A DNA stretch of 14,719 nt from Armatimonadota bacterium (GCA_038207085.1 JBBRAE010000052.1:1-14719), one strand, 5' to 3'. Shown: positions 18 to 12,857, numbered from the stretch's first letter. The notes: a model not told the origin generated them from the sequence alone. Numbers and translations are program-made.

Positions 18-560
18 CTACGCTGCTAGAAGCTCCAAGTCTGAGACTGCGGCAGAAAAGCCCGCTGCGTCCGTTCCTGAAAGCACCTTATCGATGTCCA
101 AAAGCAGTTTGACCCTGCCTTCAGACTTACCGATGCCAAGTATGTAGTCCGAGTTGACATTTATGCCAAACGACGGAGTGTCGTCGATATCCGAACTTGC
201 GATGTCGAGAACTTCCGACACCTTGTCGACGACGACGCCTACTTCAAGGCCCGAGGACTGCACTACGATAATGCAGGTCTCTTCGGTCTGCTCCTTTGTG
301 TCCATTTCAAGCTTGAGCCTTAGGTCCACTACAGGAATCACCTTGCCGCGCAAATTGATCACACCCTTGATGTGACTCGGTGTCCGCGGAACGGTGGTTA
401 TCGGCATCATCCCGATTATCTCGTGCACCTTTAGAATCTCAAGCCCGTATTCTTCACCCGCCAGAAAGAAAGTGAGGAACTTGCCTCCTCTTTCTTCGAC
501 GATACCTGCGACTGCTCCCATGCCTTTAGCTGCGGCAGCCGCGGCCGACTCACTGCTCAT
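18..560 (-). CDS. cheW: Chemotaxis coupling protein CheW
   Basis: Typical CheW sequence (KFLTFFLAGEEYGLEILKVHEIIG...IKGVINLRGKVIPVVDLRLK...VKLLLDIDKVL). Start moved from TTG 566 to ATG 560 because SD AGGAGGT (572-566) lies 5 nt upstream. Confidence 0.96.
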   Translation of the reverse strand: MSSESAAAAAAKGMGAVAGIVEERGGKFLTFFLAGEEYGLEILKVHEIIGMMPITTVPRTPSHIKGVINLRGKVIPVVDLRLKLEMDTKEQTEETCIIVVQSSGLEVGVVVDKVSEVLDIASSDIDDTPSFGINVNSDYILGIGKSEGRVKLLLDIDKVLSGTDAAGFSAAVSDLELLAA

Positions 561-583
561 ATTCAACCTCCTGGTTTGAGCTT

Positions 584-649: not shown

Positions 650-3226
650 TCAGGCCGCACGCAAGCACATCACCTCCCCACCCCTTGACTCAATACATCC
701 AGACCTCGCAAGAGATGCGACCTCACCGGGGTCGATTATCAAACCGACTCGCCCGTCTCCAAGGATCGCGCCTCCGGAAATGCCGGGAATATCACCAAAA
801 CCATCTCCCAGAGTCTTCGCCACAACGTGCTGCTGACCGAGGAGCTCATCGACGAGAAGCGCGCAGCGGCGGTCGCCGTCTTCGAGAATGACAAGCAAGC
901 CCTGCGTCAGCTCCTCTACCCCACCAGTAATGCCAAAGAGCCGGTGCAGCCTGAATACGGGCATCAACTCGCCTCGGAGCATTACAAGCTCCCCTCGGCC
1001 CGTCACAGTAGACAAGGCCTCAGGATTTGGACGGAAACTCATGTAAATGTTGATCGTCGGGATGATGAACTTCTCATCGCCTACCCGCACAAGCATGCCG
1101 TCGGTTACTGCAAGAGTGAGCGGCAGGCGCACGGAGAATGTGCAGCCCTTGCCGAACTCGGATGTGATCTCGATGCGGCCCCGCATCGACTCGACGTTCT
1201 TCTTAACAACGTCAAGCCCAACGCCTCGCCCCGAGATATCGGTCACCTGGTCGGCGGTCGAGAACCCCGGCTCAAAGATCATGTTGAAGACCTCGCCATC
1301 GCTCATCCCCTTGTCGGTCTCTATCAGGCCCTTGGAGATTGCCTTCTCGACGATTTTCTCACGGGAAAGCCCCCGGCCATCGTCCTTCATCTCGACTACC
1401 ACGGTTCCACCGGAGTGAAAAGCCCTGAGTTTGACCGTGCCGGTCTTGGGTTTGCCGTTCTGGACGCGCACGTCGGGCGGCTCGATGCCGTGGTCGACCG
1501 CGTTTCGCACCATATGAACGAGCGGGTCGTTGATGATGTCGACCATGTTGCGATCTATCTCTGTCTCCTCGCCTTCGGTGATGAACTCAACGAGCTTGCC
1601 GCTCTTCTTCGCGACATCGCGCACGAGCCGGTTCATCTTCTGGAAGGTGGGCTTGAGAGGAACCATCCTCATAGACATGCTCAAATACTGCAACTCGCGC
1701 ACGATCTTGCCCATGTGGGTCACTTTCTTCGATAGCTCGTGGTGGCCCCGAAGCATGACGACACCGTCCTGGCTGACCATGGACTGGGCGATTACGAGTT
1801 CGCCGACGGTGTCGATCAGCCGGTCGAGCCTGTCAGTGCGCACCCGGACCGACGACTCAACGCCGCTTTCGTTGCCGGAAAGTTTCTTCTGGGTCCGAAG
1901 CGCCTTTGCAACGTCAGTGACCGAGGCTGCGGCTGCTTTAAGAAGCGCCTCTCCGAGCTTGTCCTCGTCTTCTTTCTCTTCTTCGACGGTCTCGACCCGC
2001 TCACGCAGGGCAGCGCCTTCAGCGACCAGGATATCTCCCACACGCGGAACGCTCGCCATCTCGAAAGAGTCGCCGTTAATTCCTGCTGCATCCGGGTCGG
2101 CGAGAGTATCTATCAACTGAGAAAAACCATCCGGCAGCTTCATAGGAGCCCCGCCAAGAGCCGACTGGACCTGCAAGATCAAATCTTTCAGCATATCGAT
2201 CGAGCGAAGCGACAGGTCAGCGTAACCACCAGTGCACCTGATCTCACCTTCACGCACGCGGCTTAGGAGCGACTCGGCTTTGTGAGCCAGTTCGGAGATG
2301 CTCACAAGCCCAAGAAACGCCGAAGTCCCCTTGATCGTGTGGAACGCCCGAAATACGACGTTCACAGCCTCAAGGTTATCATGGTCCGTTTCAAGGTCAA
2401 GAAGCGAGGCCTCAGCGCCTTCGATATACTCCAGACATTCTGTCACAAACTCCCCAAGGAGTCCGGTGTCGGCGTCGTCCGGAAGCTGGCAGGCTACCGA
2501 CTCCGCCTTGGCAACAGGCTTTGGAGCAGTCGGAGCAGGTGGGGCAATATCAACGGGCTTAGCCTCTGCTTGGGGCTCGGGCACGACATCGCAGCCCATG
2601 CCAAGGTCTTCGGAAGCGACCATTGCCTTCTCGATCAGGCATCCGACCTCCGTAAACGATGCAGACTCTTCGTCGGCTGTCCCTGCGGCGATAGCCGCAA
2701 GAATCGCGGCGGCTCGCTTGATAGGATCGGCGGCAGCGGCACATGCGTTGATGGAAATAGCGACAAGAGCGGCGCTGGCGCGTTTGAGATCGTCGGTGTC
2801 GGTCGGTTCGATCTGGAGAAGAAGGGTGGCGACGTCGTCGAGGTTCATATCCTCCTGCGGCCCCGCGCCACAGGCATCTTCGGAAGCAGAAGCCGCCTCA
2901 AGCTGAGCCGATGCGACCGAGACGATAGCTTCGCAGTCGTCTGGCGACAGCAGAGCCGATGCTGCGGCGTCGCAGGCGTCCCCAATAGCCGCGACAAGCC
3001 GCGCGGGCGGGTCGGCTATGTTCTCGTACACAGTCTTCAGCCCCTCAAGACAGCTGCAAACAAGGTCAAAGAGCAGTGAAGGAGCGCTTTCTTCTATCTC
3101 CCCCATGACCTCTTCAAGCCCGGCGCCGACTTTGACAACCACGTCGACATCACCCGGACCTATATCCTTGACTCTCTGTCCCGCGAGCCTGAGTCTTTCA
3201 ACAATTTCGGTATATTGACCTTGCAT
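650..3226 (-). CDS. cheA: Chemotaxis histidine kinase CheA with long N-terminal extension
   Basis: HPt motif VFRAFHTIKGTS, dimerisation domain SVRVRTDRLDRLIDTVGELVI, HATPase boxes (HMVRNAVDHGIE, DDGRG, IFEPGFSTA, SGRGVGLDVV), C-terminal CheW-like domain (LPLTLAV...GGAILGDGRVGLIID). Confidence 0.97.
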   Translation of the reverse strand: MQGQYTEIVERLRLAGQRVKDIGPGDVDVVVKVGAGLEEVMGEIEESAPSLLFDLVCSCLEGLKTVYENIADPPARLVAAIGDACDAAASALLSPDDCEAIVSVASAQLEAASASEDACGAGPQEDMNLDDVATLLLQIEPTDTDDLKRASAALVAISINACAAAADPIKRAAAILAAIAAGTADEESASFTEVGCLIEKAMVASEDLGMGCDVVPEPQAEAKPVDIAPPAPTAPKPVAKAESVACQLPDDADTGLLGEFVTECLEYIEGAEASLLDLETDHDNLEAVNVVFRAFHTIKGTSAFLGLVSISELAHKAESLLSRVREGEIRCTGGYADLSLRSIDMLKDLILQVQSALGGAPMKLPDGFSQLIDTLADPDAAGINGDSFEMASVPRVGDILVAEGAALRERVETVEEEKEDEDKLGEALLKAAAASVTDVAKALRTQKKLSGNESGVESSVRVRTDRLDRLIDTVGELVIAQSMVSQDGVVMLRGHHELSKKVTHMGKIVRELQYLSMSMRMVPLKPTFQKMNRLVRDVAKKSGKLVEFITEGEETEIDRNMVDIINDPLVHMVRNAVDHGIEPPDVRVQNGKPKTGTVKLRAFHSGGTVVVEMKDDGRGLSREKIVEKAISKGLIETDKGMSDGEVFNMIFEPGFSTADQVTDISGRGVGLDVVKKNVESMRGRIEITSEFGKGCTFSVRLPLTLAVTDGMLVRVGDEKFIIPTINIYMSFRPNPEALSTVTGRGELVMLRGELMPVFRLHRLFGITGGVEELTQGLLVILEDGDRRCALLVDELLGQQHVVAKTLGDGFGDIPGISGGAILGDGRVGLIIDPGEVASLARSGCIESRGGEVMCLRAA

Positions 3227-3278: not shown

Positions 3279-3791
3279 TTAAGCTGTGGGCCTACCCACA
3301 GCAAGCCCGAGCCAGAACTGACCTTCCGGCAGGGAGTAACACATCCGAAGCGAGGAAAGCGCGCCGGGGAGCATTATGTTGATGTCGCTTCCACGGGCGA
3401 CCGTCGGCAGCGACATACTCACCCGCACGCCCATCATATCGAGTTGCGCGACCACGTCACCGGCAAGCACATTTGCAAGCTCGCCAACGACATCTCCCAT
3501 ATCCGCGCTTTCAAACTCGATCTCAAACCCTGCGAACTTCTGGGCAAGAGCGATAGCCGTTTCACGCGGAAAGCCAAGAGAAAGCGACCACGCTACCCCT
3601 CCCACAACCGAGATAATCCCGATTGCCCCCTCGCAGGGTGTGGATTCGATGCTTTCTCCCAATAAAACAGGCTCAGCTCCGGATATCGCACCAAACGTGG
3701 ATGCCATTGCGGCCTTAAGGCCTTCGATATATTCAGGCGCAGTGACGCCTTTTGCGGCGCAAACAGCGCTCAATGTTTCTGGTGTTGTCAT
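3279..3791 (-). CDS. cheX: CheX-family CheY-P phosphatase
   Basis: ExxN motif (DVVGELANVLAG), GIISVVG strand, C-terminal SLPTVARG; lies between cheY and cheA; SD AGGAG upstream. Confidence 0.88.
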   Translation of the reverse strand: MTTPETLSAVCAAKGVTAPEYIEGLKAAMASTFGAISGAEPVLLGESIESTPCEGAIGIISVVGGVAWSLSLGFPRETAIALAQKFAGFEIEFESADMGDVVGELANVLAGDVVAQLDMMGVRVSMSLPTVARGSDINIMLPGALSSLRMCYSLPEGQFWLGLAVGRPTA

Positions 3792-3803: not shown

Positions 3804-4238
3804 CTAATCCATCAGTTTGCTGAAGAATCCACCAGGCTTCTGGCCCCGCTTCTTTTCGATATCTTCGATAAGAGGCCCAACTTTCTTCTGCACATATTCA
3901 ACAGTGAATGGCTTGGTGATATAGGCGTTTGCGCCGGCGCTGTCGAGGGCTTCCTCGATCTTTGCGACCGTCTTTTCGCTCGTCACCATAATGATGGGGA
4001 CGTCCGTAGACTTGGTGGTCGCGCGGACTTTCTTCACAAACTCGATGCCGCTCATCTTGGGCATATTCCAGTCCGCGAAAACGATGTCTATCACCTTTGG
4101 GTTGAACTTGGTGACGGCATCGGCTCCATCTTCGGCCTCTACAAACTCGAACTCAGCAAGCTGGGTCCGACGCAGCGACTCCATTACCATATTGCGCATG
4201 ACGCGCGAATCGTCGATTACAAGCGCCCGTAGCTTCAT
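3804..4238 (-). CDS. cheY: CheY-like single-domain response regulator with C-terminal tail
   Basis: Receiver motifs ALVIDDS, DWNMPKMSG, PIIMVTSE, YITKPF; first gene of the che operon; SD GGGAG 7 nt upstream. Confidence 0.92.
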   Translation of the reverse strand: MKLRALVIDDSRVMRNMVMESLRRTQLAEFEFVEAEDGADAVTKFNPKVIDIVFADWNMPKMSGIEFVKKVRATTKSTDVPIIMVTSEKTVAKIEEALDSAGANAYITKPFTVEYVQKKVGPLIEDIEKKRGQKPGGFFSKLMD

Positions 4239-4358
4239 TTACATTCTCCCGTTCCACTAGAGTATCGTTATGAAAGGGCGTTGCAGCCCTGGTCGATTCC
4301 TGCAGATCGTTTGCACGCGGCAGGTGGTGGTACAATTACTGTCACTCCCACTTTCATT

Positions 4359-4390
4359 GTTTCGGCTATTCACGCCCCCAGTCTTGTCAC
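4359..4390 (-). promoter_or_regulatory. Putative sigma28 (FliA/WhiG)-like promoter of the che operon
   Basis: Minus strand reads GTGACAAG-N16-GCCGAAAC about 120 nt upstream of cheY. The -10 resembles GCCGATAA and the same layout recurs at 8679-8710. Confidence 0.55.
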
Positions 4391-4459
4391 CCGAATGGAG
4401 CGCATTTCGGGCGATTTTCCGGCTCACCTGGGGTTAATACCTACTACCAAAGGAGCAGT

Positions 4460-4485
4460 CCTATGGGTGACATGTCACCTATAGG
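4460..4485. promoter_or_regulatory. 26-bp palindromic operator candidate
   Basis: CCTATGGGTGACA|TGTCACCTATAGG, one mismatch between arms, in the centre of the divergent intergenic region. Confidence 0.55.
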
Positions 4486-4529
4486 GAGTAACCCTGCGCC
4501 TGATAACAGTACCTGATTACCAACCCATC

Positions 4530-4545
4530 GGTGATTTTTGTCACA
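4530..4545. promoter_or_regulatory. CRP/FNR-family-like site
   Basis: GGTGA-TTTTTG-TCACA matches TGTGA-N6-TCACA at 9 of 10 positions, just upstream of the -35 at 4560. Confidence 0.35.
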
Positions 4546-4559
4546 GTTTCACTCCACTC

Positions 4560-4588
4560 TTGACAAAGTATGCGAGCAGGTGTAGAGT
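4560..4588 (+). promoter_or_regulatory. Putative sigma70 promoter for the mini-protein/kinase unit
   Basis: TTGACA (4560-4565), 17-nt spacer, TAGAGT (4583-4588). Confidence 0.55.
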
Positions 4589-4689
4589 TCTAACAGGTAG
4601 GCTGACTATGCAACGATGCATAACGCAGGCATTGCTCGGCAATCGCGCAACTGTCTGGGCACATTCAATGGAATTACAGAGGCATGGTT

Positions 4690-4926
4690 ATGACAAGTAC
4701 GGATGAGGTAGGCAATTTTCTAACGCAAGCCAGAGGCAACGTTCACAAACTCGCGGGTCTCTTGAGCGGCGTATCGGCAGGGCTATACTGCACCAAGATC
4801 GCTGAGGATATGCCGGGAGTGATGAGCTGCGTAGTGGACGTTCAGAAGCTGGTCGACGAAGCAAGCGAGGAACTCACTGAGCTTAGAAGCGCACTTCACG
4901 CAATGGGACGATCCCTCGAAAGCTGA
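4690..4926 (+). CDS. Small helical His-containing protein, DHp/HPt-like (candidate phosphotransferase)
   Basis: SD AGAGG (4678-4682) fits ATG 4690 better than ATG 4684. Amphipathic helical pattern, HKLAG motif, by-eye alignment to the HisKA region of the downstream kinase. Confidence 0.65.
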   Translation: MTSTDEVGNFLTQARGNVHKLAGLLSGVSAGLYCTKIAEDMPGVMSCVVDVQKLVDEASEELTELRSALHAMGRSLES

Positions 4927-4995
4927 GGTTGATTTCGTCATTACTACAAGTAAACGAGCATCAGGAGGAGTCCATCAGCACACCGAAACACCAAA

Positions 4996-7683
4996 GTGGC
5001 TTGGATTCACAAAGGGGAGAACGGTTTGGCGAGGACATACGATATTGATACAGATGTGCTACAGGCGTGCGGAGTTCTCACGCGCTGCAGGAAAGGATCG
5101 CCTTCAAGCGCTCTTGAAGTGATCGCAAGAGCCGTCTGCGCGGAAAGCGTCCGAGTGGATATGCCCGGCTCCGAGAGCTGCACATGGCCGTCACACACAC
5201 CCAGTAACGCTGGTTGGGCGTTCAGACTCCCAATCGGCAGAAGCACGACCCTAATTGGTGCGCTCGTATTTTCTTTTGATCGAGAACCGGGTGACTGGAA
5301 GGAAAAGCAGACCGCCCTCCAAGTTTTCGCAGACTGCCTCGCGCTCTTCTACGACAAGTCACAGGTCAAGAACGAGCTCGAACTCGCAGAGCCCTATCTT
5401 GACGCAGGCCTCAGCCGCGAGATGATCGACGACCGGGCGTTCTGCGACAGCGAGGAACGCTTCAAGGCGCTCGTGGACTCCATGGATGACCTGGTCGTAA
5501 CCCTGAACTACAAGCACAAAGTTGTCGGGGTGTACGGCAAATGGCTGAACAAATACCATGTCAATCCAAAAACGCTGATCGGTATTACCGCTAATCACAT
5601 CGTCGGTGAAGATATGGGGGCGCTGCATGAGTTCATGCTCAACCGAACGCTCGGCGGTGAAACAGTGGCCTATGAGTGGCAGGTACTGATTGGCGAGCAG
5701 CTTGTCAGTTTCCACACCGTGCTCTCTCCAATGCACAACGCAGCCGGCAGCGTAACCGCCGTTCTCGGAGTGTGCAGGGACATCACCGACATCAAGCGCG
5801 CCGAGCAGGAGCTGAGAAAGAGCGAAGCGACCGTTCGAGCTGTACTAAGCGCAATTCCTGACCTCGTTCTAAAGATCAGGCATGACGGGGTAATCGTCGA
5901 CGCAAACCGCCTCGAAAACACGACACATCACTTGCCGGACGAAGACTTCCTCGGCAGACCTATTGATGAAGTTATGCCACAGGGTGTTGCAGATAACATA
6001 ATCGCTCACATGCGAAAAGCTTTTCAGACAGGGAAACTTGAGACCTGCATCTACGAGCTCGACACCCCAAATGGCACGAATATCTCCGAAGCAAGAATCG
6101 TCCCCTGTGGACACGACTCGGTCCTTGCGCTTGTGCGCAACGTCACCGAAAACAGACGCAGAGAATCACACCTTAAGATCCAGACCTCCGCGATCAAGGC
6201 GGCCTCGGACCACGTGGTTATCCTGAACGCGAAAGGCCGGATAGAATACGTCAACCCCGCCTTCGAGCTTGATACGGGATACTCCACGTCTGACCTGCTC
6301 GGCAAGCACATCAGCATGCTCAGATCAGACGAACACAACACGTGGTTTTACAGGCAGCTTTGCTCGACTATAGAATCCGGCAGCACCTGGCAGGGTGAAG
6401 TCGTCACCCAGGCAAAAGATGGAATCTGTATCACGATCGATGCGACAATCACCCCTGTTAAGAACGAGAAAGGCCTGACCGAGCGCTACATAGTCATCGG
6501 ACGCGACATTACCGAGCGAAAAGCCTACCAAGACCACCTGATTCAATCGCAAAAGATCGAGATGGTCGGTCGCATGGCCGCAGGTATAGCCCACGACTTC
6601 AACAACCTGCTCCAAGGCATCCTCGGGTACACACGGATTCTCATGCACAGGCCAGAGATGGACCCTTCATGTCGGGAGGACCTGCTTGAGGTGGAACAGG
6701 CCGCTGTCCGCGCCGCAGACCTGGTAAGGCAGCTTATGACGTTTTCCCGGCAAGTGCCCAACCGCCCGGAGCCCGTCGACATCATCTCGCTTGCCCAGGA
6801 GACATCGCGCCTGCTTCGAAAGACCCTGCCCCGTACGCTTCGTGTTGATTGCACTGCGGCGCCGGGATGCTACCCGGCGCTTGCCGACGCGACGCAGGTC
6901 CATCAGGTGATTATGAACCTGTGCCTGAACGCACGCGACGCGATGAAGGACGGCGGACAGATTACCATCTCAGTAGATCAGGTGACGCTGGACGATGAGT
7001 TCGTCAAAGCCAACATCTGGGCACGCTCAGGCAAGTATGTGCTGTGCGTTGTCTCAGACACTGGCTGCGGCATGAGCGAAGATATCCGAAAGAGGGCCTT
7101 TGAACCGTTTTTTACTACCAAATCGCCCGAAGAGGGCACCGGGCTCGGGCTATCCGTCTGCTACGGCATAGTTCAGAGCCACAACGGCTTTGTGAACATC
7201 GAAAGCATGCCCGGGCAGGGAACGACGGTCAGCGTGTATCTGCCGGTCGCCAAAGGCAAAGCTGTGTCGCCGCCGGGAGATCCGGGGGAGGAGGGCCGCC
7301 GAGGCACGGAGACGATCCTTCTAGTTGACGACGAAGACTACATCACGAAGTTCGGCAAGAGGCTCCTTGAGAGTGTGGGATACAGCGTGCTGGTGGCGTC
7401 AAATGGCAGGGAAGCGGTGGAAACAGTTGCGAACTCGGGTCACATTATAGACCTGGTCCTGCTCGACCTGAACATGCCGGAGTTGGACGGCTTGGGAGCG
7501 CTTTCGATGATTCGGGAGTCCCACCCGGATATGAAGGTGATCGTAACAACCGGGCTCGACACCGGCACCACAGAGATGCCTCACGACAAGAAACCCGACG
7601 GACTTGTGCTCAAGCCATACAAGCCCGAAGTTCTCCTGCGAACGATCCGCAAACTGTTCGATGGGGAAGAGACGCATTGCTGA
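4996..7683 (+). CDS. Hybrid sensor histidine kinase/response regulator (GAF-like, 3 PAS, HisKA, HATPase, REC; CckA-type architecture)
   Basis: PAS/PAC ends RDIT, RNVT, RDIT; H-box AAGIAHDFNNLL; NLCLNARDAM; SDTGCGM; FEPFFTTK; GTGLGL; receiver ILLVDDE...DLVLLDLNMP...KP. The start may instead be TTG 5026, which follows AGGGGAGA. Confidence 0.95.
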   Translation: MAWIHKGENGLARTYDIDTDVLQACGVLTRCRKGSPSSALEVIARAVCAESVRVDMPGSESCTWPSHTPSNAGWAFRLPIGRSTTLIGALVFSFDREPGDWKEKQTALQVFADCLALFYDKSQVKNELELAEPYLDAGLSREMIDDRAFCDSEERFKALVDSMDDLVVTLNYKHKVVGVYGKWLNKYHVNPKTLIGITANHIVGEDMGALHEFMLNRTLGGETVAYEWQVLIGEQLVSFHTVLSPMHNAAGSVTAVLGVCRDITDIKRAEQELRKSEATVRAVLSAIPDLVLKIRHDGVIVDANRLENTTHHLPDEDFLGRPIDEVMPQGVADNIIAHMRKAFQTGKLETCIYELDTPNGTNISEARIVPCGHDSVLALVRNVTENRRRESHLKIQTSAIKAASDHVVILNAKGRIEYVNPAFELDTGYSTSDLLGKHISMLRSDEHNTWFYRQLCSTIESGSTWQGEVVTQAKDGICITIDATITPVKNEKGLTERYIVIGRDITERKAYQDHLIQSQKIEMVGRMAAGIAHDFNNLLQGILGYTRILMHRPEMDPSCREDLLEVEQAAVRAADLVRQLMTFSRQVPNRPEPVDIISLAQETSRLLRKTLPRTLRVDCTAAPGCYPALADATQVHQVIMNLCLNARDAMKDGGQITISVDQVTLDDEFVKANIWARSGKYVLCVVSDTGCGMSEDIRKRAFEPFFTTKSPEEGTGLGLSVCYGIVQSHNGFVNIESMPGQGTTVSVYLPVAKGKAVSPPGDPGEEGRRGTETILLVDDEDYITKFGKRLLESVGYSVLVASNGREAVETVANSGHIIDLVLLDLNMPELDGLGALSMIRESHPDMKVIVTTGLDTGTTEMPHDKKPDGLVLKPYKPEVLLRTIRKLFDGEETHC

Positions 7684-7812: not shown

Positions 7813-8514
7813 TCAGTTGCAATGGCCCTTCAACTGCTCCAGCAGTTCCCTGCGAGAGGTAACGTTCAGATGCTGATAGATCCTGCGCAAATGGGTTTTC
7901 ACGGTGTTGACGCTTACGGAAGTCACTTTGGCGATTTCCTTATTGGTCAAGCCGTTTGAAGCAAGAGCCGCGATCTCGCGCTCACGCGCGGACAGACCTT
8001 TGGCCTGGTTTTCCGAGGCAGTATCTCTGAACGTATAGTGGATTTTTGCCATTCTCTCCAAGATAGGCGCGGCGATTGAAGGGTCAAATACGTGCTCACC
8101 GGACGCGACGGCTCTTACGGCATCAACCAGACGCTCACACGAACTGGTTTTAACCATATAGCCTTCGGCACCGGCATTGATCGCGTCGAGCAGGATTTCC
8201 TCCTCGTGATACGCGGTCAAGAACAGAATCTTGATCTCCGGGTGTGACATTTTCAGGTCTCTGGCCCATTCGATACCTGACCCATCAGGCAACACAATAT
8301 CCAACAGGACGACGTCAGGACGTCCCTGTTCGATAACGGTTGTTGCTTCCGCTATGCTGCCAACTGCTCCGGCGACTTCGAATCCGTCTTGGCTGGAGAG
8401 CATTCTGACCAACAGTTCTCTTACCATTCCGTGGTCTTCTACGATGGCAATCGTCGTTCTCTCCGCCGGCACTCCCTGGCTTTGCCTTTCTGCGATGACA
8501 GACACTCTTTCCAC
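7813..8514 (-). CDS. NarL/LuxR-family DNA-binding response regulator
   Basis: Receiver (IAIVEDH, PDVVLLDIVLPDGSG, FLT, GYMVK) plus LuxR HTH (LSAREREIAALASNGLTNKEIA...VNTVKTHLRRIYQHL). Start probably GTG 8514 (GGAGGG 6 nt upstream) rather than 8610. Confidence 0.94.
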   Translation of the reverse strand: MERVSVIAERQSQGVPAERTTIAIVEDHGMVRELLVRMLSSQDGFEVAGAVGSIAEATTVIEQGRPDVVLLDIVLPDGSGIEWARDLKMSHPEIKILFLTAYHEEEILLDAINAGAEGYMVKTSSCERLVDAVRAVASGEHVFDPSIAAPILERMAKIHYTFRDTASENQAKGLSAREREIAALASNGLTNKEIAKVTSVSVNTVKTHLRRIYQHLNVTSRRELLEQLKGHCN

Positions 8515-8678
8515 GATCATCCCTCCGGGCGGATCCAAATTGACTGTGCTGAGCTGCTTGGTCCGCGCGTCCGATACCGGTACCGGGCGCGACTCCCAGT
8601 GCCCAAGCACATGTAATACGTTCTACACCGGGCCCGCGTCATCCTTCATTTTCCAGAGAGTATTTTTTGCAATTGTGA

Positions 8679-8710
8679 TAATCGGCACCAATGTCCAGCC
8701 CACTTGTCAC
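8679..8710 (-). promoter_or_regulatory. Putative sigma28-like promoter of the luxR-type gene
   Basis: Minus strand reads GTGACAAG-N16-GCCGATTA; -10 is one mismatch from GCCGATAA. Confidence 0.55.
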
Positions 8711-8817
8711 GGTGAGCGACCTTTCCAAACGTAGCATCGTCACCGAAAACCCTGCCTGTGTATACCAGTATGGCATTCCCTGAAGTGTAAGAGCAAAATG
8801 TGGGGCATCAACAGTTT

Positions 8818-9441: not shown

Positions 9442-10185
9442 TCAGTCCATGGGGCGTCCATAGTAGTCGCACAGTTTGCCTTCGTAGTCGAGAGTGACGG
9501 GCTTATTGCGATCAAACTCAGGGCTGTTCTTGATAGCATCACGCGTCATGTCCACGTACACCATCGACTCGGCCCAGCTCACCCTATTGATCCACCGGGG
9601 AGACACCAGAACCCTCTTGCCCGGCAACCAGTTGCAGCAGTCCACGAGCAAGTAGCGAATGGTCCATGTGTCTTCGTCCACCATGAAATCCTCCACATGT
9701 CCGATCTCGCCATCGGTCGCCTCGATGTGGTAGTCGGTTACCTGGGACGTGCTTCGCAGGTGTGTATCGCTCTCAGGCTGCTCTGGCGGCACTTCGTCTT
9801 CTTCGGCGGTTCCCATTACTAAGTAGGGAGAAGCCTGGAATCCACCAAACGCAAGACCTCCGCCCCAGTAAATGGGCCAGTCGTAATATCCGTGCAACTC
9901 GGCCTCGTGCTGCCGTGAAACGGGTTTGTCAGTTTCAACGCCCGGGCTGTTTCGCACCTGTTCTTTCGTCAGATTCACCGGAAAAGTCCGTGATTCCCAG
10001 TCGGGGGAATCCAGGGCGACAGGCGAAATCAGGACTTTGCGTCCGGGAAGCCAACCGCCCGTGTCCACCACTACATAGCGGATGGTCCACGCCTGATCGT
10101 CGAAATAGAACTCCGAAACAGTTCCAATATCACCATCATTGGCGCGAATAGTGTAACCAACCAGATCATTCAGACTGCGTTTCAT
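9442..10185 (-). CDS. Tandem PRC-barrel domain protein
   Basis: Two internal repeats: GYTIRANDGDIGTVSEFYFDDQAWTIRYVVVDTGGWLPGRKVLISP and DYHIEATDGEIGHVEDFMVDEDTWTIRYLLVDCCNWLPGKRVLVSP. SD GGAG upstream. Confidence 0.92.
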   Translation of the reverse strand: MKRSLNDLVGYTIRANDGDIGTVSEFYFDDQAWTIRYVVVDTGGWLPGRKVLISPVALDSPDWESRTFPVNLTKEQVRNSPGVETDKPVSRQHEAELHGYYDWPIYWGGGLAFGGFQASPYLVMGTAEEDEVPPEQPESDTHLRSTSQVTDYHIEATDGEIGHVEDFMVDEDTWTIRYLLVDCCNWLPGKRVLVSPRWINRVSWAESMVYVDMTRDAIKNSPEFDRNKPVTLDYEGKLCDYYGRPMD

Positions 10186-10217: not shown

Positions 10218-10392
10218 CTAACCAGCATTATTCACGAGTAGTGTGAATAATGCTGGTTAGCCTGTCTGCCGTAATATACCCCAATATCGCTCAGCGAACA
10301 CACAGTCTCTTTAGCCCGCTTTATTCGTGAAACGAATAAAGCTTTCGCTAACAGAGCATTATTCACGCTTACTCGTGAATAATGCGGGTTAG
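10218..10392. mobile_element. MITE-like / palindromic repeat element, 175 bp
   Basis: 23-bp terminal inverted repeats with one mismatch (10218-10240 CTAACCAGCATTATTCACGAGTA; 10370-10392 reverse complement CTAACCCGCATTATTCACGAGTA). Three related internal hairpins. No transposase seen, so mobility is inferred only. Confidence 0.55.
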
Positions 10393-10460
10393 TAGCGTCG
10401 GATTCTCCGCAACGACGGCGTGTACTATATATAAGTGGGTCAGCTTTACATTAATAGGGT

Positions 10461-10685
10461 ATCAAGGAGTTGGAGAAGTCCGGCTTCGATATGAGAAAAC
10501 TGTCCATTGTGGGCAAATACTACCACACCGAAGAGCACGTGACCGGCTATTACACCGTGGGCGACCGCATGATGGCGTGGGGCAAATTCGTGCTCATCGT
10601 CCATGGGACGCCTGAGGAGATCACCCGGGCCAATAGCCTCATGGAACACACCGACCATCAGGGTCTGGCAGAGCACGCAGCATAA
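10461..10685 (+). pseudogene. General stress protein (YflT/DUF1269-like membrane protein) remnant
   Basis: IKELEKSGFDMRKLSIVGKYYHTEEHVTGYYTVGDRMMAWGK joins directly to FVLIVHGTPEEITRA; the Gly-rich hydrophobic middle recalled for this family is absent. In-frame TAG at 10455 suggests the N-terminus is lost. Confidence 0.72.
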
Positions 10686-10790
10686 GTGCTTCCGCTTCCG
10701 TGTAGGGCGTCGCCGCCTGACGAGGGGTGATACGGCGAAATTATTTGGCGTCAGCTTATGCTGGGCATCTAACGTAATGGAGTGACAAAT

Positions 10791-11282
10791 ATGAGAGCGA
10801 CAAGCTCTGTTCTGTTCAGAATGGTCAGTGTCAAGTGGCTACTTGTCGCGGTAGGTATTGTCGCCGCAATGGGCATAGCCGCGTGGTTGTGGCAATTGTC
10901 GGAACGCGACAAAATCTCAGCCGATTTTGATCAGTATCTCAGGGAGTCGGCTTCCCAGTCTGCCGAAATGGTGGGGCGAGCGATAGCCACGTTTGGCAAC
11001 AAGGAGATTGTGGCTGGGAACTGGGACACGGTGCAAGAATACGCCGACGACCTGGTTAGAACGAGATCCGTGGCTTACGTTGCGATACTTAATCGCGAAG
11101 GCATTGCTGTCGTTCATACCAACAGGAGTTTCAAGGGAATCAAGTTCCACGATCCAGGGAAAACTGGAAATGCTGCACACGCGTCGGTTGCAGTCATGAA
11201 CTTGACGCGGCAAGTGGCTACCGTTCATGTCGGCGTCAACATTAGCCAGCGTGCAATGGTTCGACAAGATATGGCGAACTGA
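10791..11282 (+). CDS. Single-TM protein with extracytoplasmic PDC/Cache-like domain, no signalling domain
   Basis: Hydrophobic WLLVAVGIVAAMGIAAWLW, a long helix, then VQEYADDLVRTRSVAYVAILNREGIAVVHTN, a sensor-domain-like pattern. SD GGAG (10779-10782) favours ATG 10791. Confidence 0.7.
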   Translation: MRATSSVLFRMVSVKWLLVAVGIVAAMGIAAWLWQLSERDKISADFDQYLRESASQSAEMVGRAIATFGNKEIVAGNWDTVQEYADDLVRTRSVAYVAILNREGIAVVHTNRSFKGIKFHDPGKTGNAAHASVAVMNLTRQVATVHVGVNISQRAMVRQDMAN

Positions 11283-11325: not shown

Positions 11326-12489
11326 ATGACACAGAAGAGGACTTTGCTCACCATCGAATCACTAGCCGAGTTGGCATCGGTTCACCAGCCGCCGTGTCTC
11401 TCGCTTTACCAGCGGACCCATCGGCGCCGTCCCGAGAATCAGCAGGACACGATCCGATTTCGCAACCTTGTAAAAGAGATGGAGACTTCGCTGCGGCAGA
11501 ATTACCCAGAAGTCGATGGCCGACTTCTCATGGAACCGTTTGAGGCTCTCGCCCACGATGATGACTTCTGGAACCACACACTGGATGGCTTGGCTGTGCT
11601 TAGCGGGCCCGGCTTGTTTCGGGTTTTCGGGCTTCAGCGGCCAGTCGTCGAACTCGTCGTCGTGGCCGACAGCTTTCACACCAAGCCTTTGAGACTCTTT
11701 CTGCAATCGGTCGACCGCTATCAGGTTTTGGGATTGAGCCTCAGCAAGGTACGGCTTTTCGAGGGCAACCGTGACGCGCTCGACGAGATCAAGCTGGCAC
11801 CAGGCGTCCCGCGCACCATTTCCGAGGCGTTGGGCGAGGAATTGACCGAGCCACACCAGACCGTCTCCTCCTACGGTGGAGTCGGCGGTGATGCCACGCC
11901 CATGCACCACGGTCAAGGTGGTAAGAAAGACGAGGTGCAGATCGACACGGAACGTTTCTTTCGAGCGGTCGACCGCGCGGTGCTGGAGCATCATTCCCGA
12001 CCGTCGGGTCTGCCGCTGATTCTGGCGGCGTTGCCGGAGCATCATCATCTTTTCCACCAGGTCAGCCATAACTCGTTTCTGATGGCCAACGGAATTACTG
12101 TCAATCCCGATGCCTTGTCGATCGATGAACTTCGGGAGCGTGCCTGGCAAGTCGTAGAGCCGCAGTATCAGGCGCGCCTGGCTGCACTGGCCGACGAGTT
12201 TGCAGTGGCGAAGTCCGATGGTCGCGGCAGTGACGACCTGGCGCAGGTTGCTCAGGCAGCCGCAGGCGGGCGAGTCGCGACGCTGCTGATCGAGTCCGAC
12301 CGCCAGATTGCCGGCCATCTCGACGGCGCGACGGGCCGGGTCGAAGTTGCCGATCTGAGCGACCCGCAAGTCGATGACCTACTCGACGATCTGGGCGAGT
12401 TGGTCGGGAAGATGGACGGCCAGGTAGTGATCATGCCGACGGAGCGGATGCCGGTGCAGACGGGACTGGCCGCGATCTACCGGTATTAG
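11326..12489 (+). CDS. Bacterial aeRF1-like protein (baeRF3/baeRF7-type), Balon-like hibernation factor candidate
   Basis: PPCLSLYQRTH...ENQQDTIRFRNLVKE, FWNHTLDGLAV, VADSFHTKPL, FFRAVDRAV...LPLILAAL, AAAGGRVATLLIE, DLLDDLGELV...GLAAIYRY. Strong SD AGGAGGT. No GGQ or NIKS. Confidence 0.88.
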   Translation: MTQKRTLLTIESLAELASVHQPPCLSLYQRTHRRRPENQQDTIRFRNLVKEMETSLRQNYPEVDGRLLMEPFEALAHDDDFWNHTLDGLAVLSGPGLFRVFGLQRPVVELVVVADSFHTKPLRLFLQSVDRYQVLGLSLSKVRLFEGNRDALDEIKLAPGVPRTISEALGEELTEPHQTVSSYGGVGGDATPMHHGQGGKKDEVQIDTERFFRAVDRAVLEHHSRPSGLPLILAALPEHHHLFHQVSHNSFLMANGITVNPDALSIDELRERAWQVVEPQYQARLAALADEFAVAKSDGRGSDDLAQVAQAAAGGRVATLLIESDRQIAGHLDGATGRVEVADLSDPQVDDLLDDLGELVGKMDGQVVIMPTERMPVQTGLAAIYRY

Positions 12490-12518
12490 GCCAATAACAA
12501 TCACAACAGGAGAAAACC

Positions 12519-12857
12519 ATGCAGATCCAAATCAACACCGACTCTAACATCGAAGGTCGCGAGGCGCTGACCGCTCATGTCAGTGGCGCAGTGGAAAACG
12601 CCCTGAGCCGATTCAGCGATCACATCACCCGAGTGGAGGTCCACCTAAGCGACGAGAACAGCGGCAAGAAGGACGGCAGTGAAGACATGCGTTGCATGAT
12701 GGAAGCCCGCCTCGAAGGCCGCCAGCCAATCGTGGTCACTGATCAGGCAGCGACCTTGGACCAAGCCGTCGATGGCGCTGCACATAAGTTGACCAGATTG
12801 ATCGAGACCATCATCGGGAAGCACCAGCACGCAGGGACGCAAGTAAATTCGGCCTGA
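12519..12857 (+). CDS. HPF/RaiA-family ribosome-associated protein (short type)
   Basis: MQIQINTD...LSRFSDHITRVEVHLSDEN...DMRCMMEARLEGRQPIVVT...AVDGAAHKL; SD AGGAG. Confidence 0.9.
   Translation: MQIQINTDSNIEGREALTAHVSGAVENALSRFSDHITRVEVHLSDENSGKKDGSEDMRCMMEARLEGRQPIVVTDQAATLDQAVDGAAHKLTRLIETIIGKHQHAGTQVNSA

Follow-up and report, generated by a model that had tools for sequence, protein, structure and literature searches.

A two-helix mini-protein with an invariant histidine, encoded beside a CckA-like hybrid kinase in Armatimonadota, as a candidate histidine phosphotransfer protein

Hybrid histidine kinases need a histidine-containing shuttle to reach the final regulator. Many genomes have no recognisable shuttle for each of their hybrid kinases, and HPt proteins are hard to find by sequence. 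How such a kinase might pass on its phosphate is the question raised by the window analysed here (the whole stretch of 14,719 nucleotides from an Armatimonadota bacterium, GCA_038207085.1 JBBRAE010000052.1:1-14719), in which a small open reading frame precedes a CckA-like hybrid kinase (Table 1). The first-pass annotation had stated that this kinase has no HPt of its own, and indeed Pfam finds no Hpt domain in it. It had further proposed that the small frame encodes a stand-alone helical hairpin resembling the DHp domain of the kinase, which would either complete a phosphorelay or act as a DHp-mimicking inhibitor. Residue numbers of the mini-protein refer to the 80-aa frame throughout.

Table 1. 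Positions of the features of the window on which the analysis draws
Feature	Position	Strand	Basis and remarks
CheW	18-566	-	Pfam
CheA with its own Hpt/P1, dimerisation, ATPase and CheW domains	650-3226	-	Pfam
CheX	3279-3791	-	Pfam
Single-domain CheY-like receiver	3804..4238	-	Pfam Response_reg, E 5.6e-24; divergent from the mini-protein gene; candidate alternative acceptor
Sigma-70-like promoter match TTGACA-17-TAGAGT	4560..4588	+	Divergent intergenic region 5' of the mini-protein gene; consensus match only
Shine-Dalgarno-like AGAGG	4678..4682	+	From sequence; 7 nt before ATG 4690
Mini-protein gene	4690..4926	+	Translation; 78 aa from ATG 4690, 80 aa from ATG 4684
His21 codon	4744..4746	+	Sole invariant residue of the family, 17/17 rows (16 unique); candidate phospho-acceptor
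Gly25 (H+4) codon	4756..4758	+	Within the small-residue stripe H+3, +4, +7, +8, +10, +12
Stop codon of the mini-protein frame	4924-4926	+	Translation
CckA-like hybrid kinase, PAS x3 + HisKA + HATPase_c + REC	4996..7683	+	Pfam
Kinase H-box His533	6592-6594	+	Codon
Kinase REC Asp824	7465-7467	+	Codon
NarL/LuxR-type regulator (REC + GerE)	7813..8610	-	Pfam; convergent with the kinase; candidate terminal acceptor

The small frame is a real gene for a small protein. Its coordinates, and the codons given on first reading for its histidine and for His533 of the kinase, were found to be right, and the public database gene call corresponds to the 78-aa form. A non-coding leader and a chance ORF were ruled out by the existence of small relatives, by the ratio of substitutions and by a confident fold, and the same three lines uphold the claim of a stand-alone protein. 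An exhaustive phmmer search of 1.84 billion representative proteins returned 16 matches at E<=1e-3, self included, of which 13 were non-self proteins of 74-86 aa (E 1e-10 to 5e-4); two long matches (420 and 955 aa) were repeat proteins and were judged spurious from their sequences. Over 76 codons, the orthologues of the genomes G003 and G005 differ by 16 synonymous and 10 nonsynonymous codon changes (dN 0.059, dS 0.458, dN/dS 0.13), and on this codon comparison the gene is under purifying selection. The divergent intergenic region between the CheY-like gene and the frame spans 445 nt, and the promoter match within it agrees with the consensus at 10/12 positions; two promoter-like sites were counted in 4200-5100, against 0.7 +/- 0.8 in shuffles. 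Among sequencing runs, only a DNA run, perhaps the source sample itself, was listed for 4400-5400, and no RNA run.

The relatives come from Armatimonadota MAGs and metagenomes and were aligned in 17 rows, 16 of them unique sequences. A six-frame search of 41 related genomes located the gene in G003, G005, G025 and G031 in addition to the genome of the window (G000). When the search was widened to the 53 genomes that make up the class and to 401 genomes sampled from the phylum, only weak matches were gained, and these were not counted as family: those of G050/G051 had E about 6e-4, and those of G134/G211/G279 lay inside large ORFs or contained a stop. A word-indexed search with the single mini-protein recovered only itself, and a first-pass metagenome scan gave 90 pattern matches with no relative among them. 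Among longer proteins (152-2000 aa), a profile search turned up no fused forms, which is weak evidence that such forms do not occur. The suggestion that this is not a described family agreed with all database comparisons: the window mini-protein has no Pfam match at E<=10 and no NCBIfam match (otherwise single-member noise), a PDB sequence search with the family profile gave coiled-coil noise only, and a full-text literature search found no description of the family.

The helical hairpin that had been proposed was recovered by structure prediction. The AlphaFold2 model built from the 17-row alignment consists of a helix (3-39), a turn (40-42) and a second helix (43-79), with a pLDDT of 92.8 and a pTM of 0.77, so that an antiparallel two-helix hairpin is predicted with confidence. 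Having two helices only, the mini-protein must oligomerise to form a bundle. Structural comparison proved to be of limited use for such a simple shape. Foldseek against the PDB gave a best E of 0.22 and only designed or generic hairpins, and the best score in the ESM Atlas (0.86) was to unnamed clusters. A wide VIA-align search returned 285 chains at Z>=8 with ESCRT-III hairpins on top (Z 11-12) and one kinase DHp (ZraS, Z 9.8) at rank 37, showing that a hairpin search is not discriminating. The generic hairpin folds matched include chemoreceptor bundles.

Conservation of the histidine had been named as a check on the first proposal, and His21 was invariant in every row of the alignment. On helical wheels averaged over the family, His21 lies in the middle of helix 1 at 140-155 degrees from the hydrophobic face, and His21, G25, S28 and A32, at 140-170 degrees, form an exposed flat stripe opposite that face. 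Among the unique sequences, H+4 is Gly in 15/16 and Ser in 1/16, H+3 is Ser (9/16) or Ala (7/16), and H+7 (T/S), H+8 (G), H+10 and H+12 are likewise small; the Lys of the HPt motif HxxKG is absent from H+3. H+2 is Leu, as in Hpt, H+5 is Leu in 12/16, and H-4 is Arg in 12/16. H+1 is R/K/T or another residue, acidic in a single case (1 D of 16). Tyr at H+14 (10/16) and Cys at H+15 (13/16) are also conserved and are not explained by a relay role. Of the ~10,000 Hpt sequences described in PMC6341664, 87% carry Gly and 10% Ser at H+4, where DHp domains have T/N, and the same source describes bulky H+4 residues as abolishing transfer in Ypd1. The reliability of the HxxKG motif has itself been questioned (PMC11481889). 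By these residues the environment of His21 looks like that of an HPt rather than that of a DHp, with the H+3 Lys of HPt missing. The remark on first reading that HKLAG fits the HPt pattern therefore held, given the Gly/Ser at H+4, and held better than the DHp alignment offered beside it.

Membership of the known phosphotransfer families was examined with Pfam models and with hhalign, for which target profiles were built from domains in the related genomes (28 domains for Hpt). The Hpt model (PF01627) matched neither the window mini-protein (E<=10) nor any of the 17 members. With hhalign, the Hpt profile was aligned over 73 columns with His on His (score 21.2, P 2.8e-3, probability 11%); 0/150 column shuffles reached this score and the reversed control gave 14.6. 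The highest score, also reached by 0/150 shuffles (reversed control 10.5), was to HisKA_3 (24.2, P 5.5e-4, probability 30%), with the His one residue off. In hmmscan, HisKA_3 (PF07730) matched 3/17 members below threshold, at up to 21.1 bits where the cut-off is 24. The His was about 5 positions out of register there, and from the ranges aligned the resemblance seems to lie mainly in the second helix. The DHp motif of HisKA_3, HD..Q, is also visible in the hhalign alignment. Generic HisKA scored 18.6 (P 0.0072, probability 5.4%) with the His out of register; again 0/150 shuffles reached the score, and the reversed control gave 16.1. The features of HisKA (PF00512) were not found, since H+1 is mostly non-acidic, H+4 is G/S and there is no Pfam match. 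The four-helix monomer of Hpt differs from the two helices of the AlphaFold2 model. A hairpin with the His on its first helix, as in Spo0B and ChpT, is what the model predicts, with His21 at mid helix 1; the mini-protein matched neither PF14689 nor PF10090 (no Pfam match at E<=10) and has only 80 aa. Spo0B and ChpT carry an extra C-terminal ATPase-like domain, which is impossible in a protein of that length. By profile comparison the family belongs to no known family, no match to Hpt, HisKA, HisKA_3, Spo0B or ChpT being significant, and is best described as a His-bearing hairpin with a faint resemblance to both kinds of phosphotransfer bundle.

The more specific claim, that the mini-protein aligns with the DHp of the adjacent kinase, stood as a literal alignment and failed as evidence of relationship. 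The alignment was reproduced with one gap, 11 identities and 22 positives in 53 columns and a BLOSUM62 score of 26. BLASTP of the mini-protein against the whole kinase did not report it, and a Smith-Waterman comparison with the 87-aa DHp segment scored 35 against 23.0 +/- 4.2 for shuffles, 31/2000 of which reached 35. When whole families were compared, hhalign placed the 17-row alignment in the same His-His register on DHp columns drawn from 40 CckA-like kinases, the neighbours of family members among them, with a score of 12.4 (P 0.11, probability 0.5%); 9/100 column shuffles reached this score and the reversed control was higher, at 16.3. Judged by these scores, similarity to the adjacent DHp is not above chance. 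A copy or mimic of the DHp thus lacks statistical support, and the residues at H+1 and H+4/H+5 are also unlike those of a DHp. The best BLASTP match between the two proteins was a different one, DMPGVMSC at the hairpin turn of the mini-protein (residues 42-49, 4807-4830) with DMPGSESC at the N-terminus of the kinase (55-62, 5158-5181), identical at 6/8 positions (E 0.13); as the hairpin turn is not conserved in the family, this match is probably due to chance.

The strongest evidence for a link to the hybrid kinase was the gene context. At four independent loci the mini-protein gene lies directly 5' of a CckA-like hybrid PAS-HisKA-HATPase-REC kinase on the same strand, and the kinases at all four are without an Hpt domain. 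The gap is 69-99 nt in the window, depending on the kinase start chosen (the public gene call begins at TTG 5026 and gives 885 aa), and 143 nt in a metagenome locus represented by two contigs. In G025 the two genes share 4 nt at the kinase start and are translationally coupled, with no che genes within the 16 kb examined. The fourth locus is that of G031 (contig C34). A NarL/LuxR regulator and che genes are found near the pair in 3/4 loci, the che genes lying beside it in G000, G031 and the metagenome locus, where FliM, CheC and CheD are adjacent; the NarL-type regulators share only 30-32% identity across loci. In addition, a mini-protein relative and a kinase orthologue occur on contigs of equal size in P0014/P0027 (4242 bp) and in P0005/P0139 (15177 bp), which may represent further linkage. 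The synteny that had been suggested as a check was thus observed, and it is accompanied by co-occurrence across genomes. With kinase orthologues defined at E<=1e-100 (45-55% identity over DHp-CA-REC), 6 of the 41 related genomes have the orthologue; the mini-protein gene is present in 5/6 of these and in 0/35 of the others, counts that overstate independence, since the genomes are kin (4 genera), and are therefore suggestive and not a statistic. The exception, G020, has a kinase orthologue on a 5.7-kb contig with no room directly 5' of it, and no mini-protein gene was found in that genome.

In the G031 copy (C34, 1441-1800) the frame is interrupted by a TGA five codons ahead of the His, and H+4 is Asn; the downstream kinase is split into ORFs of 186 aa (PAS) and 1019 aa. 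The genome is 73% complete, and either decay of the locus or assembly errors may account for this. The mini-protein gene of G003 and G005 is flanked by genes for an M16 peptidase and a secreted protein; no two-component, signalling or che genes lie within 6 kb, and the kinase orthologue is on another contig, clustered with genes for another kinase, for a receiver and for a receiver-PP2C phosphatase. Within the G003 cluster (C50:33000-46000) the other kinase is again of HisKA type, the receiver is a single domain and the phosphatase is REC-PAS-GAF-SpoIIE (PP2C), which suggests a partner-switching output there.

The receiver of the partner kinase has the full catalytic set: D779, D824 and K873 are invariant in the 40 kinases and T852 is present. 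Partner kinases are cytoplasmic proteins with many PAS/GAF domains, for which no ligand is obvious. Relatives of the kinase are often named CckA by their sources, and thousands of CckA-like hybrid kinases occur without a mini-protein. At the end of beta4 (residues 850-854, 7543-7557) the sequence is [ST][AT]G[LIM]D in the closest Armatimonadota kinases and S/T-G-Y across the wider CckA-like set, the latter being the FATGUY-type motif reported for CckA receivers; Gly853 is invariant in 40/40 sequences. As for other shuttles, G000 encodes three Hpt domains, two in CheA proteins and one stand-alone. The last belongs to a separate kinase/receiver cluster that recurs in relatives without the mini-protein gene, and its presence on contig C24 makes the argument that no HPt is available weaker than had been stated. 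That cluster (G000:C24:16549-19886) is a four-gene relay of a regulator, a single receiver, a HisKA kinase and the stand-alone Hpt protein, and its Hpt-HisKA pairing recurs in G001, G002, G003, G004, G005 and G007. No ChpT-family (PF10090) or Spo0B-family (PF14689) protein was found over the cut-off in G000, and no HisKA_3 kinase was detected (best E 0.9). The genome nevertheless has five REC+GerE (NarL-type) regulators with no HisKA_3 kinase, at least one of which is present in 17/20 of its closest relatives.

Relay by a dimeric hairpin is not new in kind, being preceded by Spo0B, ChpT and the putative case of HmrB. In Spo0B and ChpT, as described in PMC11481889 and PMC3433190, a four-helix bundle is built from two hairpins, each with the phospho-His on its first helix, and the C-terminal receiver of CckA is described as a shuttle that passes phosphate to the DHp-like dimer ChpT (PMC9981736). 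The kinase beside the mini-protein gene belongs to the CckA-like group, a likeness to the partner of ChpT. HmrB of Caulobacter is a 108-aa hairpin encoded beside the hybrid kinase HmrA and modelled as a dimeric four-helix bundle; its proposed role as an atypical HPT comes from genetics and from AF-multimer models, not from biochemistry (PMC11481889). By the description given there, HmrB shares with the mini-protein its position beside a hybrid kinase and the lack of HxxKG, and differs in its length, in having two candidate histidines (H50, H74) and in being confined to Caulobacteraceae; the mini-protein family, compared with it by description only, has 74-86 aa, one invariant His and Gly at H+4. 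Set against all three systems, the family stands out by its smaller size, by its single invariant His followed by an HPt-type Gly at H+4, by its origin in another phylum and by its conservation beside CckA-like kinases in che clusters.

Likeness to Hpt proteins (Ypd1, ArcB-HPt, CheA-P1) consists in an exposed His on a long helix, Gly/Ser at H+4, Leu at H+2 and the weak His-on-His profile alignment over the His helix and the next helix. Against this, Hpt proteins are monomeric bundles of four or more helices, and the H+3 Lys, an HMM match and a high hhalign probability are all missing from the family. HisKA_3 DHp domains belong to kinases that pair with NarL/LuxR regulators, the type that neighbours the mini-protein gene, and they are also hairpins with the His on helix 1 and give the best, though weak, profile match. 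The family nonetheless falls below the cut-off with its His off register, has R/K/T at H+1 where HisKA_3 has D/E, has L and not Q at H+5, and has no ATPase domain.

From these data we consider it about an even call that the mini-protein is a minimal, presumably dimeric, His-phosphotransfer protein. It would be cytoplasmic and would work with the CckA-like hybrid kinase encoded just 3' of it. Two hairpins would associate as a four-helix bundle, the arrangement of Spo0B, ChpT and putatively HmrB; the phosphorylated kinase REC (Asp824) would dock on the flat His face and transfer its phosphoryl group to His21; and from His21 the group would go on to a terminal receiver, for which the NarL/LuxR regulator is the most plausible candidate and the CheY-like protein a possible one. 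With no acidic residue at H+1, no T/N/Q at H+4/H+5 and no ATPase domain, the mini-protein would be a pure shuttle without kinase or phosphatase chemistry.

The tight linkage to the kinase and the co-occurrence with it would also fit a hairpin that is not phosphorylated and that binds the DHp or the receiver to inhibit or tune the kinase, a reading that includes the DHp-mimic idea. Sda is such a helical-hairpin inhibitor of KinA, and by analogy the fold of the mini-protein would suit this role, as would the literal DHp alignment in His-His register, the three sub-threshold HisKA_3 matches and an hhalign score to HisKA_3 that no shuffle reached. It is considered unlikely, because the similarity to the DHp of the cognate kinases themselves is at the level of chance, the HisKA_3 alignments are out of His register by one residue (hhalign) or about five (hmmscan), and a binder has no obvious need of an invariant exposed His with Gly/Ser at H+4. 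The two conserved residues that a relay leaves unexplained suggest instead a sensory or cofactor-binding accessory, in which His21 and Tyr35/Cys36, perhaps across a dimer, would hold a metal or haem or respond to redox and signal to the PAS kinase, itself cytoplasmic, PAS/GAF-rich and with no obvious ligand. This is quite unlikely. The Cys is missing in 3/16 sequences, including the G025 protein that is translationally coupled to its kinase; the 15 residues that separate His21 from Cys36 on one helix put them beyond reach of a common ligand within a monomer; and searches of Pfam, the PDB and NCBIfam gave no match to any metal- or haem-binding family.

The che genes that flank the pair in three of the four loci, with FliM, CheC and CheD in the metagenome locus, and the chemoreceptor bundles among the generic fold matches raise one more reading, that of a chemotaxis or flagellar hairpin without phosphotransfer (an adaptor, a chaperone or a CheZ-like protein) that is near the kinase only by way of the che clusters. 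We regard it as improbable, since the G025 gene overlaps its kinase with no che gene in the 16 kb examined, the G003 and G005 genes have no che genes nearby, and the mini-protein gene was found only in genomes with the kinase orthologue, CheA-type Hpt domains being present in many more.

The phosphotransfer reading can be taken further, and here our doubt somewhat outweighs our belief: the mini-protein would be the smallest known His-phosphotransfer protein, a bare two-helix protein of ~78 residues without an ATPase-like domain that combines a DHp-like hairpin with an HPt-type His/Gly(H+4) surface, wires che-cluster CckA-like hybrid kinases to NarL/LuxR regulators in Armatimonadota, and is possibly an evolutionary intermediate between DHp and HPt. 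If so, chemosensory signalling would be linked to gene expression in this phylum. If an 80-residue hairpin suffices for a relay, many orphan hybrid kinases may use unannotated mini-proteins, and maps of relay wiring would need revision. The family would then offer a minimal scaffold for what a phosphotransfer surface needs, namely an exposed His, Gly at H+4 and a flat face of small residues, and it may show how the DHp and HPt bundles are related.

Some further genes of the window were recorded beyond the NarL/LuxR-type regulator. On the minus strand, 9442-10185 encodes a 247-aa protein with an N-terminal PRC-barrel domain, around which lie unannotated ORFs at 8231-8734 and 10382-10615. A small Cache-like ORF at 10782-11282 stands ahead of a gene for an eRF1-like protein (11326-12857; baeRF family 3, E 6e-55), which lies directly 5' of a gene resembling the Ribosomal_S30AE hibernation factor.
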